This document shows, in pieces, positions 32,985-41,993 of a DNA stretch of 64,000 nucleotides. Where the stretch lies: assembly GCA_963727485.1 (NCBI GenBank), contig CAVSGM010000011.1:96001-160000 (forward strand), given 5' to 3'. The notes under the pieces are model-generated. The model had not been told where the DNA came from. It saw only the letters and a program-made list of their open reading frames with translations, and did no database searches. This stretch comes from an uncultured delta proteobacterium. GTDB lineage: Bacteria > Myxococcota > Myxococcia > SLRQ01. Numbering within the stretch: position 1 is the first letter of the stretch; each line of letters begins with the position of its first letter. Both the position numbers and the translations under genes were made by a program.

Positions 32985-34041
32985 CTACCGGATGAGCGCC
33001 TCGGCCCCGCGCTCCATGGCGCCGATGCGCCCGCCGACGCCGGTGGCCTCGACCACCTGCTCCCAGATGGGCGCCGCCAGGGCCCGGGCCTTCGCCGCCC
33101 CGGCGTTCAGGATCTCCGCCACCGCCTCGGGGTCCGCCTCGAGCTCGGCGCGTCTTGCCCGCGCCGGCCCGAAGACCTCGAGGTACCGCTCGAAGAGGCG
33201 CTTCTTGTAGCTCCCGTACCCGACGCCCCCCTCGGCCCAGGTCCGCTTGTGCTCGGCGGCCTCGTCGGCCTCGCAGAGGAGCACCAAAAGCGCCAGCAGC
33301 GGCGAGCCGGCGGGCTTGGGCGCCTCCACCGGGGTGGAGTCGGTCTTCATGCCCATGATCCGCTTGCGCAGGGGCTTCTCGGCCTCGAAGAGGGGCAGGG
33401 TGTTGTCGTAGCTCTTGGACATCTTCTGCCCGTCGAGGCCCGGCACCACCGCGGCCTGCTCCAGGATCAGCGACTCGGGGAGCTTGAGGATCCCGGGAAC
33501 CCCGTTGCCCTTGCCCTCGGCGTCGGCGGGATTCCCACCCGGGGACGAAGGCGAGGTTGAACTTGGCGGCGATGTCCCGGGCGTACTCCAGGTGCTGCTT
33601 CTGGTCCTGGCCCACGGGCACCGCGTCGGAGCCGTAGAGCAGGATGTCCGCGGCCATGAGCACCGGGTAGAAGAGGAGCCCCGAGTTGGGGGCGATGCCC
33701 TTGGCGAGCTTGTCCTTGTAGCTGTGCCCGCGCTCCAGGAGGCCCACCGGGGTCACCGTGGAGAGGATCCAGGCGAGCATGGGGATCTCGGGGACGTCGC
33801 TCTGGCGGAAGAGGATCGCCCGCTCGGGATCGAGGCCGAGCGCCAGGTAGTCCAGCGCCACGTCCAGGGACGCCTGGCGCAGGCGCGCCGGGTCCCGGAC
33901 GGTGGTCAGGGCGTGGAGGTCGGCGATGAAGTACAGGGCCTCGTCCGCCTCGTCCTGGTACTGCACGAACTGGCGGAGGGCCCCGAGGTAGTTGCCCAGG
34001 TGGAGCTTCCCGGAGGACTGGACGCCCGAGAGGATTCGCAT
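32985..34041 (-). CDS. trpS: Tryptophan--tRNA ligase (apparent +1 frameshift at ~33532)
   Basis: SGVQSSG.LHLGNY, YPVLMAADIL, VPVGQDQKQHLE in one frame; PGLDGQKMSKS in the next. Confidence 0.93.
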
Positions 34042-34124
34042 GGCGGGGGAGGTACCATCCGGCGCCGGGGGCGGCAACTCCGGGGGCAGCGGGACGCGCC
34101 GGCGCGGCGGCCCTCCCGGCGCGG

Positions 34125-35375
34125 CTAGAGCAGCAGCAGGCTCGCGTCCTCGACCACCTGGAGGCAGAAGAGCGCGTAGAGCAGCGCCCAGGTGTCGCGC
34201 CGGTCGAGCCAGCCCTCGGCGGAGAGGTCGGCGACGGTGCGGGTGCCGTCGAGGCGCGCCACCACCTGGGCCTGGGGGCCGGTCAGGGGCAGGTCGTAGA
34301 GCTCGTAGGCGGGGGCCGGCGCCGGGGCGAGGCGCAGGTGGCCGGGGAGGAGGTCCCGGAGCACCGGCAGGGTCAGGGTGTGGACCCCCTCGAGGACCAG
34401 GTCGGTGGGGAAGATGTCGAGGCGCACCGGCTCGGCCTCGGCCTGGCGCTGGAAGGTCATCCGCCAGGTGCCCTCGCGCCAGGGAAAGAGGCTGAAGAGG
34501 ATGCCCTTGACCTGCCGGGTCACCAGGGCCCGGTGCCGCGCCCGGGAGAGGAGCCCGCGCCCGAGGAGCACCCGGTCGATGCGCTCCCCCCGCTCGCTGG
34601 CCTCCTCGGCGGCGGCGCGGATGGCCGCCTCGTCGAGGGCGCCCTGGCGCAGGAGCAGCTCGTCGAAGCGGTCCCGGCGCAGGTTGCTGGCGCCGAAGGC
34701 CGGGAGCCCCTCGTGGAAGTAGATGACCTTGCGCACCTTGCCGCGCTGGAGGTGGAGCTCGCCGGTCTCCCGGCTCACGTGGAAGGCGTTGAGCAGCCGC
34801 GGCACCGAGTGCTCGGCGAGGCTCCCGGAGGGGCCCGGGCTCGCCTTCGGGGGCTCGACCTCGGGGGCCTTCTCGGCCTGGGCGCGCAGGGCCGCCTCGA
34901 GGCCCGCCTCCGGGGGATCGAAGACGTAGTCCTGGGGCGTGCCCTCGACGGGGACCGCCTCCAGGCGCACCACCTGGTCGGGGTCGTAGGCCGGGGCCGG
35001 CGCCGGGGTGGCGTCGGGGATCAGCGCCTGGAGGCGTGCGAGGACCTCGGGGAGGTGGAAGGGCTTGTCGAAGAAGGCGTCGAGGAGGCCCCGGGACAGG
35101 GCGTCGCGCACCGAGGGGTCCTGGCGGAACACCCCGGAGATGCCCACCACCGCCGGGCGGGTGGGGAGGCGGCCGGCGGCCTCGGCGACGGCGAAGCCCA
35201 GGCCGTCGGGGAGGAGCAGGTCGAGGAGGATGCCGCCGGGGGCCGCGGCGGTGAGGGCGGCGAGGGCCTCGTCCACCCGGCGCGCCACCCGGACCTCGTA
35301 GCCGGCGTCCTCGAGGGCGGCGGCGAGGAGGCGGCCGAGCTCGGCCTGGTCCTCGACGATGAGCAGAGTGGGCAC
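34125..35375 (-). CDS. Response regulator with DUF4388/PATAN-like C-terminal domain
   Basis: LIVEDQ..LLDLLLPDG..KPF receiver; GSL..SVPRLL..ETGEL.L..KVIYF.EG.P..ASN, LFPWREG. Confidence 0.8.
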   Translation of the reverse strand: MPTLLIVEDQAELGRLLAAALEDAGYEVRVARRVDEALAALTAAAPGGILLDLLLPDGLGFAVAEAAGRLPTRPAVVGISGVFRQDPSVRDALSRGLLDAFFDKPFHLPEVLARLQALIPDATPAPAPAYDPDQVVRLEAVPVEGTPQDYVFDPPEAGLEAALRAQAEKAPEVEPPKASPGPSGSLAEHSVPRLLNAFHVSRETGELHLQRGKVRKVIYFHEGLPAFGASNLRRDRFDELLLRQGALDEAAIRAAAEEASERGERIDRVLLGRGLLSRARHRALVTRQVKGILFSLFPWREGTWRMTFQRQAEAEPVRLDIFPTDLVLEGVHTLTLPVLRDLLPGHLRLAPAPAPAYELYDLPLTGPQAQVVARLDGTRTVADLSAEGWLDRRDTWALLYALFCLQVVEDASLLLL

Positions 35376-35450
35376 CGCCAAAGGATACGGGAGGCCCCGC
35401 GGCGACGACAGCGCTTTGGCCGGCGGCGGCGACCGGGCTACCGTGGGGCC

Positions 35451-36310
35451 GTGCCCAAGGAACCCGCCCAGGTCACCGGCGTCCCCGACCCCCGCCGCGC
35501 CATCGAGCGCACCCCCACGGTGACCTGCGTGGTGCACCGCACCATGGACGGTGCCCCCGGGGCGGCGGCGGACGATCGCCTGGCCGTGGAGGCGCCCCTG
35601 GAGATCCGCCTCGACGACGCCCCGGTGGCGGTGGTCATGCGCACCCCCGGCGCCGACTTCGAGCTCGCCGCGGGGTTCCTCTTCTCCGAGGGGCTCGTCG
35701 CCTCGGCGGCCGACGTCGCCGGCATCGCCTGGTGCCGCGAGCCCGGCCAGACGGGCCCCACCAACGTGGTCTCGATGGCGACCCCGGACCGCCGGGGCCC
35801 GCGGGTGGTCGGCGATCGGCGCCGGGTGGTGACCACCACCAGCGCCTGCGGCCTCTGTGGCCGGGTGACCCTCGACGAGGTCCACCGGCGCCTGGCGCCG
35901 CTCGCGCCGCCGCCACCGCTCACCCTCGCCGACCTCGAGGCCGCCCAGGCGGCGCTCCGGGACGCCCAGCCCCGCTTCGCCGACACCGGGAGCGTCCACG
36001 GCGCCGCGCTCCTCGCCGGCGACGGAGCCCGGGTCGCCTGCTTCGAGGACATAGGCCGGCACAACGCCGTGGACAAGTGCGTGGGGCGGATGCTCCTCGG
36101 GGAGCGCCTGCCGCTGGCCGGCCACCTGCTGGTGGTCAGCGGCCGGGTGAGCTTCGAGATCGTCCAGAAGGCGGCGGTGGCCGGCATCCCGGCGGTGTGC
36201 GCCGTGGGCGGGGCCACCAGCCTGGCGGTGGACCTCGCCCGGGAGGCCGGGATGCTCCTCGCCGGGTTCGTGCGCGACGGCCGGGCGACGGTGTACGCCG
36301 GGGTGCTGGC

Positions 36311-36314
<4 letters not shown>
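35451..36314 (+). CDS. fdhD: Formate dehydrogenase accessory sulfurtransferase
   Basis: [57 protein letters not shown]. Confidence 0.95.
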
Positions 36315-36938
<624 letters not shown>

Positions 36939-36964
36939 GGCCCACCTATAGCCCGGGCGCGGGC

Positions 36965-36998
36965 AAAAAAAAGCCCCGCAAGCCGAAGCTTGCGGGGC
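36965..36998 (-). terminator. Intrinsic terminator, copy 1
   Basis: GCCCCGCAAGC-UUCG-GCUUGCGGGGC followed by U8 on the minus strand. Confidence 0.93.
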
Positions 36999-37334
36999 CT
37001 GGGGGACCTGGCCAGGCCGGGGGAGTACCGACCAGATCCACATCGGAGAGGGACCCCACGGTTGCCCGTGGGGCTCGTCCACGCCTCGACCGGGGGGGGA
37101 ACGAGGCGGACGAAAAGGTGGCGCAGCCTGGAGAGAAGGGCGACCCGGGCCGGGTGCCGGGGGGAGGTTCACCGGCCCGGGTCATCCCAAAGACGCTGAC
37201 TCGGCCGGTCGTGCTTGGACCGACGCGAATCCGTACGACCTGGGAAGAGCCGGCACGCACCGCTGTGCGTGCGAAGGGGGGGACCGACGTGCCGGATACC
37301 CAGGTAACTGCGCCATTTCGTATTCGGTTTTCGC
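36965..37334 (-). ncRNA. Putative ~370-nt structured ncRNA with C-rich loops, copy 1
   Basis: Lies between a sigma-54-like promoter and an intrinsic terminator; several helices conserved with copy 2 through compensatory and G-U changes; no conserved ORF. Confidence 0.8.
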
Positions 37335-37344
37335 AAGGAGAGAA

Positions 37345-37360
37345 TACAAGCGCGGTGCCA
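37345..37360 (-). promoter_or_regulatory. Sigma-54-like promoter, copy 1
   Basis: TGGCAC-CGCGC-TTGTA; -12 element has GT instead of GC. Confidence 0.7.
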
Positions 37361-37633
37361 ACTCGAGCCTCCGCCCGGCAGCGCGCCAATGGCCAGTCTT
37401 TTCAGGGCCTTGCGGCCCAGGCCGGGAGATGCCCCGGGGGCGGATCCGAATGCAGATCTGCAGTCTGGCCACGGATCCGTTGCGAGGCGGAAAAGCCATC
37501 GTCATTCCAGGTGCTTGCGTCGAATTCCGGCGCTCCGCTCCCGCTGGAATCGTTCCAGTATGGCAAAAAACCGAGCCTTGACGCGGACTTGGGGATGGCT
37601 TGCACCGCTGAAAGTTCCCGGGCGGGCGCGGAC

Positions 37634-37667
37634 AAAAAAAAGCCCCGCAAGCCGAAGCTTGCGGGGC
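37634..37667 (-). terminator. Intrinsic terminator, copy 2
   Basis: Identical UUCG hairpin plus U8. Confidence 0.93.
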
Positions 37668-38006
37668 CTGGGGGACCTGGCCAGGCCGGGGGAGTACCGA
37701 CCAAGTCCACACCATCGAGGCGCCCCACAGTGACCCGTGGGGCTCGTCCGCTCCTCGACCGGGGGGGAGACCGAGGGGGACGAATGGGGGGCGCAGCGTG
37801 AGAAAGGAGGGAGACCCGGACCGGGTGCCGGGGGGAGGTTCACCGGTCCGGGTCATCCCAGGTACAGCGGCTCGGCCGGTCGTACTTGGACCGACGCGAA
37901 ACCGTAATGCCTGGGAAAATCCGGCACGCACCGCTGTTGATGTGCGAGGGGGGGACCGGCGTGCCGGGAACCCAGACAACTGCGCCATTTCGTATTCGGT
38001 TTTCGC
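37634..38006 (-). ncRNA. Putative ~373-nt structured ncRNA with C-rich loops, copy 2
   Basis: Paralog of copy 1 with the same promoter, terminator and helices. Confidence 0.8.
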
Positions 38007-38016
38007 GAGGAGAGAA

Positions 38017-38032
38017 TACAAGGGCGATGCCA
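38017..38032 (-). promoter_or_regulatory. Sigma-54-like promoter, copy 2
   Basis: TGGCAT-CGCCC-TTGTA at the same position as in copy 1. Confidence 0.7.
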
Positions 38033-38340
38033 ACTTGGGTCGGCCCGGAAGCAAGACCCCAATATCCAATTCTTTCAGGCGCTTGTGGTCGTGTCCGGAG
38101 GATGCCCCAGGGGCTGATCTGGATGCACATGTGCAGTCTGGCCCCGAGAGGTTTTCCAATACGAAAAAACGTAGTTATCAAGGGGCATTGAGTGTCATTC
38201 AGCGATTCCACTCCCAGCGGAATTGCTGCAGTGTGGCGAAAAACCCTGTCCTGATGCGTCTCTGGTGGGCCCTTGCACCCATGCAAGGTCCCTTCAGATC
38301 TGCAAGGCTTCCCGGGGCCCGTGGGGGCCCGCCCGCTGCC

Positions 38341-38961
38341 TCAGGCGCCGGCCCGCTCGTAGACCAGCCGGTAGACCGGCGTCCCCGTGGCCAGGTACCG
38401 CCGCTCCCGGTTCGAGGGGACCCCCAGGCCGTCGTCGGCGGTGAAGGTCCCGGGCCCCGACCGGTTCTCGAAGGGGGCCGCCCCGTCCTCGAAGGCCTCA
38501 ATCATGGCCCGGGCGTAGTCGAGGATGTCCGTGCGCAGGTAGACCCGGCCTCCGGGCCGGAGGAGCACGCCCATCATCCGCACCATCGGTGGGTCCACCA
38601 GCCGCCGCTTGTGGTGGCGCTTCTTCCACCAGGGGTCCGGGAACTGCACGTGGAAGGCGTCCACCGACCCCGGGGTGAAGAGGGTGGGCAGCAGGCGCCT
38701 CGCGTCCCCGCGCATGGCCAACACGTTCCCCAGCGCCCGGCGCTCGGCCTTCCGCACCGCCCCGGCGGCGAGCTTCGCCCGGAACTCCAGGCCCACCAGG
38801 TCGACCTCGGGGTGGGCGGCGGCGTAGTCCAGGAGGAAGTGGCCGTAGCCGAAGCCAATCTCCACCTGGAGGGGGGCGACCCGGCCGAAGCGCGCGGCCC
38901 AGTCCTCCCGGAGGTCGACGGCCAGGGGGCCGGTGGCGAAGGGGTCGTGGCGCTGGGGCAT
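38341..38961 (-). CDS. trmB: tRNA (guanine-N7)-methyltransferase
   Basis: EIGFGYG, GLE, FPDPWWKKRHHKRRL, LRTD. Confidence 0.92.
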   Translation of the reverse strand: MPQRHDPFATGPLAVDLREDWAARFGRVAPLQVEIGFGYGHFLLDYAAAHPEVDLVGLEFRAKLAAGAVRKAERRALGNVLAMRGDARRLLPTLFTPGSVDAFHVQFPDPWWKKRHHKRRLVDPPMVRMMGVLLRPGGRVYLRTDILDYARAMIEAFEDGAAPFENRSGPGTFTADDGLGVPSNRERRYLATGTPVYRLVYERAGA

Positions 38962-39203
38962 GGGGCGGTCGGCGGATGGCGCGCGGGGGCGGGGCGGCGG
39001 ATGATAGCGGGGCCCCCGGGAAATGTCCCGGGGACCGGTCGCGTACCGCCGCAGGTCGCCCGGTCAGATCGCCCGCCGGGGGTGCGTCCGCCGGCCACAT
39101 GCGCCATCTTGAGACTGAATTGACACTCGGCGTCGCGCGTTGCTACCACGAACCACCGGTGGCGGCGGGGCGGGGCCCCACCCGGATCAGGGGATAATCG
39201 CCC

Positions 39204-39995
39204 ATGTGGCAGAGAATGAAGCGCGTCGTCCGCTCCTTCGCCAACTTCTTCATCTCGGTGGCCGAGGACCCGGAGCTCATCCTGGAGCAGAACATCCGGG
39301 ACATGAACGACGAGGTCCCCAAGATGAACGAGTCCATCGCCATGGTCCGGGCGAACGTGACCCTCCTGGAGAAGGAGCAGGCGCGCTACCAGACCGAGAT
39401 CAACGAGACCACCAGCAAGGTCAAGGCGGCGATCAAGGCCGACCGGGACGATCTCGCCGCCAGCTACGCCATCAACCTCGAGCACAACCAGAAGGCCCTG
39501 GCCCGGAGCCAGGGCCAGCTCGAGGCCGCCAAGAGCGCCTACGAGAAGGCGCTCCAGCTCAAGCGGGCGTTCATGCGCGAGAAGGAGCGCAAGACCCGCG
39601 ACGCCCTCGAGGCCATCCGCGCCCACAAGCGGGCCCAGTGGCAGGCCAAGGTCGCCAGCACCCTCGAGTCCTTCGAGATCGGCGGCCTCGACCAGGGCCA
39701 CGACGACATGATCCGCCGCATCGAGGAGAAGACGGCGGTGAACGAGGCCCGGATGGAGATGGCCCTCGACGGCCTCGACCGGGACCGGCTCCAGATCGAG
39801 GAGGACGCCGAGCGGATCCGCGCCGAGGAGGTGGTCCGCCAGCTCAAGCTGGAGATGGGCGACGACGGCACCGACGCCAGCCACCAGCTCGGCAGCGGCG
39901 AGGCCACGCGCCTCGCCAGCGTCAAGGCCGCCGACGAGGCGGCCGAGGACACCGAGGCGGCGGTTCCCGCCGAGCCCAAGGCCGAGGCCAAGTGA
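39204..39995 (+). CDS. PspA/IM30 family protein
   Basis: MWQRMKRVVRS amphipathic start, EDPELILEQ.IRDM, long coiled coil, RRIEEK. Confidence 0.85.
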   Translation: MWQRMKRVVRSFANFFISVAEDPELILEQNIRDMNDEVPKMNESIAMVRANVTLLEKEQARYQTEINETTSKVKAAIKADRDDLAASYAINLEHNQKALARSQGQLEAAKSAYEKALQLKRAFMREKERKTRDALEAIRAHKRAQWQAKVASTLESFEIGGLDQGHDDMIRRIEEKTAVNEARMEMALDGLDRDRLQIEEDAERIRAEEVVRQLKLEMGDDGTDASHQLGSGEATRLASVKAADEAAEDTEAAVPAEPKAEAK

Positions 39996-40053
39996 TCCAC
40001 GGGAGGCGCGGGGTGGCCGTCGCCAGCGCGCGGCGCCCCCACGCGGCACACCG

Positions 40054-41091
40054 ATGACAGCACGCAAGGTCAGGCTGGGTCCCGGCGGCAAGGTCCTCAT
40101 GGTCCTCCTCGGGGTGGGCGTCATCCTCTGGGGCCTCGACGCGTACGGGTACCTCGACGGGGTCCGCAAGGCCCTCGGGTGGGAGCGGGGCCAGGCGGCG
40201 ACCGTGGTCCGCCGGGCGGTGACGCGCCCGGCCGCCCGGCCCCCCGAGGCCACCGCCCCCGCCTCCGACCCCGGTGCGACCCGTGCCGCCCCGCGCGCCG
40301 CCGCGACCGCCCCCGCCGCCGCGTCGCCCCCCGCCGACGACGCCTCGGCCCCGCTCCCGGCGCTCCCCGGGGCCACCCCCGCCGCCCTGAAGGACGGGGG
40401 CGACGCCCTCTGGGCGTCCACCGGCGGTCCGGCGCCCCAGTCCGAGCTCACCGCCCTGGTCCAGGGGCGCCTCGACCTGGCGCCCGTGGCCCTCCCGGAC
40501 CTGCTGCTCTTCGAGGACGCCGACAAGCTGGTCGTCGTCGGCGCGGTGCCGCCCCGGTCGCGGTACCTCTGCGCCGAGGCCGCCGACCCGGTGCAGGCGG
40601 TCCTCGGCGGCGCCTCCATCCACTTCGACCGGATCTCCGACGAGCTCCGGCTCGGCCTCCTCTTCGCCGCCCACGGGAAGGATCCCGCCGAGGCGGTCTC
40701 GGGCCAGGGGACGCCAGCGTTCACCAGCGCCACCCGGTCCCAGGGGGACGGCGACCACTGCGCGGACCTGGCGGCCCTCGGCGTCGACGGGCCCCGGGTG
40801 GTGGTGGCCCGGGCCACCGCGGTCCGCCTCCAGGGGCGCGCCTACCTCGCCGCGGTGAAGGCCCGGGGCGCCCTGACCCCGGCGGTGCGGGCCTGGCTCG
40901 GCGCCGACGCCCGCGACCCCTACGGCTACGCCCACCGGGCGGCGGCCCTCGCCCGGATCCACGCGACCCTCCAGTCCACGGTGGCGCCGGCGGTGCCGGC
41001 GGTGGCCCGGGACCTCCTCGCCGCCGACGCCCGGGGGGTGCTCCGGCTCTTCGCGCCCGCGAAGGCCGCGGCCCCGGGAGGCGCGCCGTGA
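40054..41091 (+). CDS. Membrane-anchored hypothetical protein
   Basis: Single N-terminal TM, Pro/Ala linker; GTGA overlap with next gene. Confidence 0.65.
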   Translation: MTARKVRLGPGGKVLMVLLGVGVILWGLDAYGYLDGVRKALGWERGQAATVVRRAVTRPAARPPEATAPASDPGATRAAPRAAATAPAAASPPADDASAPLPALPGATPAALKDGGDALWASTGGPAPQSELTALVQGRLDLAPVALPDLLLFEDADKLVVVGAVPPRSRYLCAEAADPVQAVLGGASIHFDRISDELRLGLLFAAHGKDPAEAVSGQGTPAFTSATRSQGDGDHCADLAALGVDGPRVVVARATAVRLQGRAYLAAVKARGALTPAVRAWLGADARDPYGYAHRAAALARIHATLQSTVAPAVPAVARDLLAADARGVLRLFAPAKAAAPGGAP

Positions 41092-41993
41092 GCGAGGAGC
41101 AGCCCACCGGCGACCGCCGGGACGAGGCCCTGGTCCCCGTGGAACAGGGCGGCGGCGCCCTGGCCCCACGGGAGAACGGCGGCCCCCCCGCCCGGCGCGC
41201 CCGGGTGAACTACACCAAGGAGGCGTTCCTCTCCCGGTTCAACCTGGCGCTGGTCGCCGGGGCCGTGGGCCTCTCGCTGGTGACCCTCTCGCCGCTCCCG
41301 CTGATCCTCGCCGCCGGGGGCGAGCTGGTCTACCTGGGCACCATCCCGGGGATGCGCCGCTACCAGCGCCTGGTCGACTCGCGCTTCCACGCCCTGCGCC
41401 GCCTCGAGGGCCGGCGCGCCGAGGCGCAGATCTATCGGCGCCTCTCGCCGAACCAGCAGACCACCGTCGACGCCCTCCGGGGCCTCCGGGACAAGGTCCA
41501 CGAGAACTACCAGCGCCTCGGGGGCGGGCGCGTGGTGACCGACGCCTCGCTGGGCAAGCTCGACCAGCTCCTGGTGAGCTTCGTCCGCCTCCTCGACCAG
41601 CTCAACGCCTACCGTCGCTACCTCGGCGCCACCGACCAGGGGCGCATCCAGCGCGAGCTGGCCACCTTGGAGACCGAGCTCTCCGTGGAGAAGCGCGAGC
41701 GCCTCGCCGACATCAAGCGCCGGCGCCTCGACATCCTCCACCGGCGCCTCGATCGCTTCGAGCGCGGAGAGGAGAACCGCGAGATCATCGCCCACCAGCT
41801 CGCGGCCATCGAGGACCTGATGCGGCTGATCCACGAGCAGTCCCTGACCCTGCGCGACCCCCAGGACATCTCCCGGCAGCTCGAGGCCCTGACCTCCGAG
41901 GTCGAGGAGACCGAGGGGACGGTGCGCGAGATGGAGAGCTTCCTCCAGCTCCAGGACGAGCTGGAGCGGACCCTGGCCGGCGAGAGCCCGTGA
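41088..41993 (+). CDS. Membrane protein with C-terminal coiled coil
   Basis: TM hairpin followed by charged heptad-rich helices; GGAGG RBS; 3' part of the 40179..41993 ORF. Confidence 0.75.
   Translation: MSEEQPTGDRRDEALVPVEQGGGALAPRENGGPPARRARVNYTKEAFLSRFNLALVAGAVGLSLVTLSPLPLILAAGGELVYLGTIPGMRRYQRLVDSRFHALRRLEGRRAEAQIYRRLSPNQQTTVDALRGLRDKVHENYQRLGGGRVVTDASLGKLDQLLVSFVRLLDQLNAYRRYLGATDQGRIQRELATLETELSVEKRERLADIKRRRLDILHRRLDRFERGEENREIIAHQLAAIEDLMRLIHEQSLTLRDPQDISRQLEALTSEVEETEGTVREMESFLQLQDELERTLAGESP

Follow-up and report, generated by a model that had tools for sequence, protein, structure and literature searches.

The window analysed here is a stretch of 64,000 nucleotides (nt) from an uncultured delta proteobacterium of the Myxococcota (assembly GCA_963727485.1, contig CAVSGM010000011.1, positions 96,001 to 160,000), whose genome we call G000. 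Between a trmB-like methyltransferase gene and a pduO-like cobalamin adenosyltransferase gene (start 36938), it holds two tandem minus-strand units of ~670 base pairs (bp) each, copies A and B, which share one anatomy: an upstream enhancer, a sigma-54 box, a structured RNA of ~370 nt with C-rich loops, and a terminator. The duplicated segment of ~670 bp takes in ~290 bp of DNA upstream of the RNA. The two RNA bodies are 87% identical, and G000 contains exactly two full copies. As read from the sequence, the locus is a real, family-restricted large poly-C-loop RNA gene in tandem duplicate, with a predicted transcript. The features are given below in window coordinates; the RNA 5' ends are inferred from the position of the sigma-54 box, and the boxes and IHF-like sites are named by the sigma-54 and IHF consensus sequences.

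38341..38961, minus strand: trmB-like methyltransferase gene (Pfam Methyltransf_4; homologous context), 5' neighbour in 5/5 family genomes
38292..38305, no strand: copy A enhancer palindrome 1, PxrR-type with one mismatch; the genome's second-best matrix score
38273..38286, no strand: copy A enhancer palindrome 2, exact TT[TG]CA-N4-TG[AC]AA; one of 2 exact genome sites
38123..38136, no strand: copy A proximal enhancer palindrome, two mismatches; counterpart at -103 to -145 in 6/6 copies
38073..38085, minus strand: putative IHF-like site of copy A; retained in both copies
38017..38032, minus strand: sigma-54 -24/-12 box of copy A, -12 element TTGTA instead of TTGCA; matrix score 12.0 of 23.8, combined rank 1/1121
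37634..38006, minus strand: RNA copy A, ~373 nt; z -6.3, homologues
37993..38001, minus strand: leader motif AAC(N)GAAUA, mostly single-stranded; 6/6 copies
37790..37986, minus strand: copy A 5' domain, P1 (37980-37986 with 37790-37796) enclosing P2, P3 and P4; pair probability >0.8 in 5/6 copies
37948..37957, minus strand: C-loop 1 (P2) of copy A; mean unpaired probability 0.74
37863..37906, minus strand: P3 hairpin of copy A, conserved bulged C, without C-loop; two-sided changes in 5/11 pairs
37809..37859, minus strand: P4 hairpin of copy A, C-loop 2 at 37828-37840, then a pyrimidine linker; two-sided changes in 4/10 pairs
37744..37783, minus strand: P5 hairpin of copy A, C-loop 3 at 37759-37768; module missing in G001
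37722..37743, minus strand: P6 tetraloop hairpin of copy A, without C-loop (predicted fold)
37669..37714, minus strand: P7 hairpin of copy A, C-loop 4 at 37686-37695; GGU/GCC closure like stem-loop 1 (SL1) of Pxr
37634..37668, minus strand: copy A intrinsic terminator, UUCG hairpin and U8
37600..37613, no strand: copy B distal enhancer palindrome, exact; the genome's best matrix score
37450..37463, no strand: copy B proximal enhancer palindrome, by matrix
37400..37412, minus strand: putative IHF-like site of copy B
37345..37360, minus strand: sigma-54 -24/-12 box of copy B; matrix score 14.1, combined rank 2/1121
36965..37334, minus strand: RNA copy B, ~370 nt; z -6.2
37276-37285, 37157-37169, 37090-37100 and 37017-37026, minus strand: copy B C-loops
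36965-37000, minus strand: copy B terminator
36305..36938, minus strand: pduO-like cobalamin adenosyltransferase gene, end approximate, frame break near 36560; 3' neighbour in only 2/5 genomes

An assembly artefact as the source of the tandem is ruled out by one short-read contig of run X1, which spans the copy junction (37465-37826) with 1 difference. Near-identical pieces are present in two salt-marsh runs and one soil run, one of them perhaps the sample of origin. Both copies fold far more stably than their shuffled counterparts (z -6.2 and -6.3; 0/100 shuffles equally stable). The opposite strand of the RNA region folds almost equally well, and so the strand assignment rests on the promoter and the U-tail. 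The initial annotation had proposed the P1 helix (GGCGCAG/CUGCGCC), the nested P2, P3, four C-rich loops and a tetraloop hairpin, all of which we recovered where it placed them, together with UUCG hairpin and U8 terminators ending at 37634 and 36965. The differences between the copies that it described as preserving pairing are likewise all present: a G/C pair replaced by A/U, ACCUGGG/CCCAGGU by GUCUGGG/CCCAGGC, and GGAUCUGG by GGACUUGG.

Homologues and conserved structure

Homologues, one each and all behind trmB, are found in 4/4 other genomes of the family (G001-G004), and the family seems to be the sole member of its order. The resulting six RNAs, two from G000 and one from each relative, measure 298-421 nt and fold with z between -6.2 and -8.6, at 49-61% identity between genera. 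Their plan is constant: the leader, P1, P2 with its C-loop, P3 with a bulged C, P4 with a C-loop, the pyrimidine linker, P7 with a C-loop and the terminator. P5 and P6 are variable, with P5 lacking in G001 and an additional 5' hairpin in G002, and the number of exposed C-tracts per RNA ranges from 4 to 6. The long-range helix P1 is retained in 5/6 copies with dissimilar sequences across genera. We counted base pairs per module; a global alignment of the six copies puts the modules in the wrong places. Pairs altered on both sides amount to 5/11 in P3, 4/10 in P4 and 2/11 in P7. In these three helices 95-98% of the alignment cells pair, and shifting the partners, as a control, abolishes pairing. 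A comparison with homologues had been proposed in the initial annotation, and structure-preserving changes are indeed seen among the six copies. Such covariation is support rather than a significance test, given six related sequences and structures derived from those same sequences. In a related copy from run X10, 22 substitutions among those listed could be mapped: 12 fall in unpaired positions, 5 keep a pair and 5 break one, the last comprising 2 with the partner beyond the contig and 3 in a record with 13 gaps.

Outside the family, searches of metagenomes, viral sequences, trmB loci and phylum genomes returned no full-length RNA. A strict 3' motif matched 0 metagenome contigs. A looser motif matched at least 119 metagenome stretches and 1 viral one, and among the 120 listed none carried trmB or a sigma-54 box plus enhancer; in phylum genomes, one of them (G081) flagged as unpublished, it matched 4/401, all of this family, from which the motif had been built. 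A sigma-54 box with four C-tracts occurs at 1/80 trmB loci (L037), which may duplicate a genome already counted and is left out of the counts. When a covariance model of the 3' module (R2) was run on 150 phylum genomes, strong matches were confined to this family; the 17 weak ones inspected turned out to be arms of tRNAs or simple terminators, two of them having a C-loop but lacking a sigma-54 box. At L373 (G011) and L372 (G018), a C-loop hairpin precedes a terminator, and no sigma-54 box lies within 450 nt; these are possibly other C-loop small RNAs. Of the weak DNA matches, which also included L014 and L015, the two inspected (L012 and L016) proved not to be homologues.

The genomic context was predicted to be the trmB-pduO interval. 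This holds upstream, where trmB is the neighbour in 5/5 genomes, but downstream in only 2/5 (including G003), the remaining 3/5 having an open reading frame without Pfam match. Beyond trmB, window positions 39204-41993 hold a PspA/IM30 gene and two genes without Pfam match, all divergent, with similar genes close to the RNA in G002 and G003. Frame breaks occur in pduO (36305-36938), trpS (32985-34128) and the G000 pxrR gene discussed below, which suggests assembly indel errors rather than pseudogenes.

Promoters, PxrR and the relation to Pxr

The promoter-like motif of the initial annotation can be specified as a sigma-54 -24/-12 box with upstream enhancer palindromes. The box is present in 6/6 copies, as a sequence match with a non-consensus -12 element, and palindromes precede every copy at about -103 to -145 and -223 to -283. 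The same palindrome, TT[TG]CA-N4-TG[AC]AA, lies upstream of true pxr loci; Pxr is the RNA that controls the switch from growth to fruiting body in Myxococcus, and the literature calls it recent in origin, with its direct targets unknown. Only 2 exact palindromes exist in the 5.55-Mb genome G000, both upstream of the two RNAs. An exact site stands upstream of the RNA in 5/5 family genomes, making up 2/2, 1/2, 1/5 and 2/7 of the exact sites in the four relatives; a backwards control motif occurs 0, 0, 3 and 7 times in these and 2 times in G000. We also scored sites with an enhancer matrix trained on pxr-type promoters of other families (32 upstream regions, 85 sites). The genome's three best matrix sites all lie upstream of the two RNAs, whose promoters rank 1 and 2 of 1121 sigma-54-like genome sites when both elements are combined (45.0 and 44.4; next 32.9 and 27.0). 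The analysis yields a candidate PxrR binding motif. The third-ranked site (32.9; L118, G000:C1:784163-784400) has one short C-loop hairpin and no clear terminator, lies near another sigma-54 activator gene and is perhaps a degenerate unit.

A putative activator can be identified in the same genome. A kinase-pxrR pair lies on a separate contig, C1, and its PxrR is the best match for 5/5 PxrR queries and reciprocal best in 5/5 genomes. Among 30 sigma-54 activators of G000, it is the only one to fall in the 17-row PxrR clade of a quick tree (Shimodaira-Hasegawa-like approximate likelihood ratio test, SH-aLRT, 100), for which 16/17 loci supplied gave a row. The G000 pxrR abuts a convergent nuoN, leaving no space for pxr, and no RNA signature was found within 500 nt of pxrR in G001-G004. 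Since the RNAs have the top-ranked pxr-type promoters, and since the genome has a PxrR orthologue with no RNA beside it and no classical Pxr hairpin, the RNA most likely fills the slot of Pxr as the predicted output of PxrK/PxrR.

Alike as it is in regulation and design, the RNA is not a member of the Pxr family RF01812. The Rfam Pxr model gives no match up to E 10 in window positions 35000-40000 and matches 0/5 family genomes at E 1; the membership threshold is 80 bits, true pxr loci score 87 and 123 bits, and Rfam-confirmed pxr loci occur in the same class as the family, which would make that class Myxococcia. We also built a broadened covariance model of the long single C-loop hairpin from 32 Pxr-like hairpins (R1). 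It matches 28/68 chosen genomes, with 23/24 inspected loci credible, and many of its loci lie distant from pxrR yet carry the enhancer. R1 and the Rfam model both miss the family, so that a family without the classical hairpin has the long RNA under the same enhancer. The sole sequence link to Pxr that we could discern is the GGU...RCC closure of the P7 loop, which is present in 6/6 copies and in 28/32 Pxr-like hairpins, compared with 2.1% of genomic runs of five or more C; the remaining C-loops of the RNA mostly lack it, and loops hold 4-8 C in this family versus 7-10 in 31/32 Pxr-like hairpins.

Compared with the Pxr of M. xanthus and its relatives (PxrK/PxrR being MXAN_1077/1078), the RNA shares the sigma-54 promoter, the enhancer palindrome, an intrinsic terminator, a C-rich loop with GGU/RCC closure, tandem paralogues with duplicated promoters and an orthologous activator in the genome. 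It differs in having ~370 nt (298-421) and 7-8 helices against ~108 nt and three stem-loops, 4-6 exposed C-tracts against 1, a multibranch 5' domain, no stem-loop 3 stem, another terminator stem and a position away from pxrR, in a host not known to form fruiting bodies. The Pxr-like RNAs found in other families do not all sit behind pxrR either. On balance, the RNA somewhat more probably than not shares its descent with Pxr.

The pxr loci themselves provided further observations. Pxr-XL gives rise to Pxr-L and Pxr-S by processing. When the pxr loci of family f2 (L017-L036, L151-L158) are folded from the sigma-54 box onwards, Pxr starts ~15 nt before the Rfam model, and the extra 5' part pairs with the annotated stem-loop 2 into a single long SL1, as in other families. 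The modelled fold indicates that full-length Pxr may be ~120 nt, which could bear on Pxr-XL and Pxr-L. At L155, L156 and L157 (G057, G089 and G097), at least 5, 7 and 4 copies of pxr stand in tandem, every copy having a promoter to itself, and at L158 (G113) pxr is inverted relative to pxrR.

A wider group of sigma-54 poly-C-loop RNAs

Behind the best match to the PxrR helix, a C-loop hairpin RNA with a sigma-54 box is present in 23/40 stretches; it is a single hairpin in f3 and f7, a two-loop form in f4 and Pxr in f2. Families f3-f10 have Pxr-like RNAs, with a single hairpin or two loops, that go unrecognised by Rfam (L123-L144, L288-L317); these often lie away from pxrR but with the enhancer, and several f5 genomes have 2-3 copies. 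In other classes, a box-plus-C-run pattern gave 18 matches in 15/80 genomes versus 4 for the control, among them ~11 credible RNAs of 1-3 loops, two with the enhancer and one of these matches beside a pxrR orthologue; 12 such loci compared with Rfam yielded no match. Other-class loci are L350, L352, L354, L356, L359, L362, L365-L367 and L315; G170 carries a 240-nt three-loop sigma-54 poly-C RNA, G139 four copies, and G131 a poly-C-loop RNA with enhancer beside a pxrR orthologue. In many f3 and f4 genomes, a small gene that by eye resembles a single receiver domain follows the Pxr-like RNA (L123, L126, L127, L133, L135, L136, L161, L162) and is a possible further part of the module.

These Myxococcota RNAs resemble ours in the sigma-54 box, long C-loop hairpins, U-tail, often the same enhancer, variable loop number and multiple copies. 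They are simple hairpins of ~70-240 nt with 1-3 loops, unlike the 298-421 nt, P1-closed junction, leader motif and P3 hairpin of the present RNA. The RNA has every trait by which the group is described (sigma-54 box, stem-exposed C-runs, U-tail, PxrR-type enhancer) and, on these sequence features, is the largest form found of a phylum-wide group whose common descent sequence cannot prove. The initial annotation had called it an undescribed large multi-loop RNA. Its size and the lack of an Rfam family stand, but it is not a wholly separate class, being linked to Pxr by features that the annotation had missed. With its sigma-54 box and PxrR-type enhancer, in a genome whose pxrK-pxrR pair is an orphan and in a family that lacks a classical Pxr hairpin, it is a new large form inside the wider Pxr-like group. 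In the literature searched, mostly without subscription journals, we found neither this RNA nor a phylum-wide Pxr-like group described. What is most likely new here is a large, branched, family-restricted form that replaces Pxr, three to four times its length and with four loops. Well beyond the Rfam family, the activator of Pxr and its enhancer co-occur with a C-loop RNA, which makes it testable whether the module predates fruiting-body development.

Mode of action and comparison with known systems

The initial annotation had offered three modes of action (blocking of Shine-Dalgarno sequences, sponging of a protein, processing into several small RNAs) without ranking them. Each unit would by itself be a gene whose product, a regulatory RNA acting in trans, serves as the output of the PxrK/PxrR two-component system. 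PxrR very probably binds the TT[TG]CA-N4-TG[AC]AA palindromes and activates sigma-54 polymerase, and, to judge by promoter and terminator, an RNA of ~370 nt ending at U8 is in all likelihood made. The P1-closed 5' domain and the 3' row of hairpins are predicted, with backing from covariation, to hold four U-C5-8 loops unpaired. By analogy these loops might, with as much to be said for this step as against it, seed pairing with G-rich mRNA sequence, in ribosome-binding sites or close to them and independently of Hfq, and translation would be repressed; having several loops would increase avidity or allow more than one mRNA to be bound, and the duplication would raise the dose. Published accounts describe ribosome-binding sites as pairing partners for the C-rich loops in RNAIII, RsaE and LhrC (PMC2837412, PMC2790875, PMC4132741), with no need for Hfq in RsaE and LhrC (PMC2790875, PMC4132741), and report that Pxr without a proper SL1 C-loop still accumulates but does not function (PMC5684412). 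These precedents, together with the failure to find Hfq in 5/5 family genomes, lead us to favour action by pairing with G-rich mRNA, a proposal we nevertheless hold tentatively. It is also favoured by the occurrence of GGGGGA in 86/2912 Shine-Dalgarno windows versus 38 and 32 in upstream windows. In a test of G-run avoidance, coding DNA avoided C-runs at least as strongly as G-runs.

Several observations weigh against this account. The covariation rests on only six sequences. The enhancer consensus is genome-wide no commoner than its backwards control, so that the enhancer evidence is one of position, not abundance; its seed motif was picked by eye after the window had been seen, and the matrix test is therefore not fully blind. 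The -12 element deviates from consensus. Close to the DNA-binding end of the G000 pxrR, two frame breaks compensate each other and are probably assembly errors; the gene reads intact in G001-G004. On the window copies, the best values of model R1 are E 0.15-0.2 and come from the terminator or the wrong strand, and the model matches 0/5 family genomes. A duplex scan on rough gene calls (4240 genes) found, for 4239 genes, 277 strong loop duplexes at start sites versus 218 upstream and 112 in coding sequences, a slight enrichment that the ordinary Shine-Dalgarno signal can explain. No conserved target emerged, the three top candidates keeping a clear G-tract in 1/8 best-hit genes inspected, with 2 ambiguous, and a homopolymer loop carries little targeting information in a genome of 73% GC.

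With the same gene and the same PxrR control, the RNA could instead be a multivalent sponge for a poly(C)-binding protein, whose titre loop and gene number would set; this is possible, if less probable. CsrB/RsmZ and the sigma-54-driven CrcZ titrate their proteins in this way. Homopolymer loops, and loop and gene numbers that vary freely, agree with a sponge nearly as well as with pairing: the feature constant across the phylum is a C-run on a free stem, in 1, 2, 3 or 4-6 loops and in tandem arrays, while stems diverge freely and no conserved mRNA target was found. For Pxr, passages of one account leave 24/25 predicted binding regions without a tie to differentially expressed genes (PMC11928866). 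The C-rich-loop RNAs cited above act by pairing, however, loop lengths differ between this family and the Pxr-like hairpins, and no candidate protein was identified, Hfq being the only possible binder searched for. An old Myxococcota module, in which PxrK/PxrR drive a sigma-54 RNA to titrate a poly(C)-binding protein, with a strength tuned by loop number (1 to 6) and gene number, seems rather unlikely; if it were true, Pxr would be the one-loop member and this RNA the most multivalent seen, a CsrB-like sponge with a new motif and a new protein, which would explain why Pxr targets are elusive. Compatible with either pairing or titration, but improbable, is a 370-nt precursor cut into short one-loop active RNAs. 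Modular hairpins on single-stranded linkers, the pyrimidine-rich linker past P4, the gain and loss of whole modules (P5 in G001, the 5' hairpin of G002) and the stepwise maturation of Pxr in passages of PMC10217877 are in keeping with such processing, whereas the conservation of the long-range P1 and of P3, a hairpin without C-loop, suggests that the folded whole matters, and each unit has a single promoter and a single terminator.

That the region is a cis-acting leader, riboswitch or attenuator of pduO, or cryptically coding, is very improbable, even though copy B ends 26 nt ahead of the pduO start, pduO also lies behind the RNA in G003 and long open frames span the region. No gene lies directly behind copy A, a different gene lies downstream in 3/5 genomes, and no riboswitch model matches. 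The earlier non-coding call is borne out: GC content at third codon positions is 0.64-0.72 in all six frames of both copies versus 0.98 in both neighbour genes, substitutions between the copies spread over the three codon positions as 11/19/15, indels of 1, 2, 1 and 1 nt disrupt the frame, and no open reading frame is common to the genera across the homologues. Both the pduO riboswitch and the coding region are largely refuted by this evidence. Least credible of all is that the RNA is a divergent form of a housekeeping RNA such as RNase P, 6S or tmRNA, or that the duplication has decayed and has no function. The length is near that of RNase P RNA and one copy might be a redundant duplicate, but the RNase P and 6S RNA genes sit elsewhere in the genome, ARAGORN finds no tRNA or tmRNA in the window, and both copies retain promoter, helices and terminator. 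No sigma-70 promoter was found at the locus. An Rfam scan, which the initial annotation had suggested, gave no match at the gathering score for window positions 35000-40000; the best scores, sX13 (RF02232) at 25.8 of 50 bits and 6C (RF01066) at 27.5 of 47, both include the terminator, and in the homologues sX13 reaches 28.4 of 50.

The RNA resembles some C-rich-loop RNAs from outside the Myxococcota. RNAIII of Staphylococcus aureus is similarly a large multi-hairpin signalling effector, with C-rich loops 7, 13 and 14 on G-rich mRNA sites (in passages of PMC2837412), but is unrelated in sequence and phylum. The present RNA has no Rfam match to it and no conserved open reading frame. RNAIII encodes a peptide and is not known to be sigma-54-driven. 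The RNAs cuckoo/CcsR, LhrC, RsaE, sX13 and 6C share a repeated C-rich loop motif, divergent stems, variable module number and multiple copies (PMC4615179, PMC4132741, in part), and LhrC is, by the same account, driven by a two-component system (PMC4132741). In cuckoo, as far as PMC4615179 describes it, the loops are CCUCCUCCC on 2-4 adjacent hairpins in alphaproteobacteria; here the hairpin loops are U-C5-8(-GG) runs instead, and the modules diverge similarly but a multibranch domain and non-C hairpins intervene. Dv_sRNA2 of Desulfovibrio vulgaris, compared by description, is an expressed small RNA and a target of the sigma-54 response regulator DVU0679 (passages of PMC3333781, PMC4641369), although it adjoins its regulator gene. 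To sX13 and 6C there are only the sub-threshold Rfam scores, terminator included. With its four loops, the RNA would offer a high-avidity bait for asking what a C-loop binds. CrcZ/CrcY and CsrB/RsmZ have A-rich or GGA motifs instead, and the present RNA has no Rfam match to them and belongs to a family in which Hfq was not found; they share with it the design of a long two-component-output RNA that repeats a single-stranded motif, driven in CrcZ by sigma-54.

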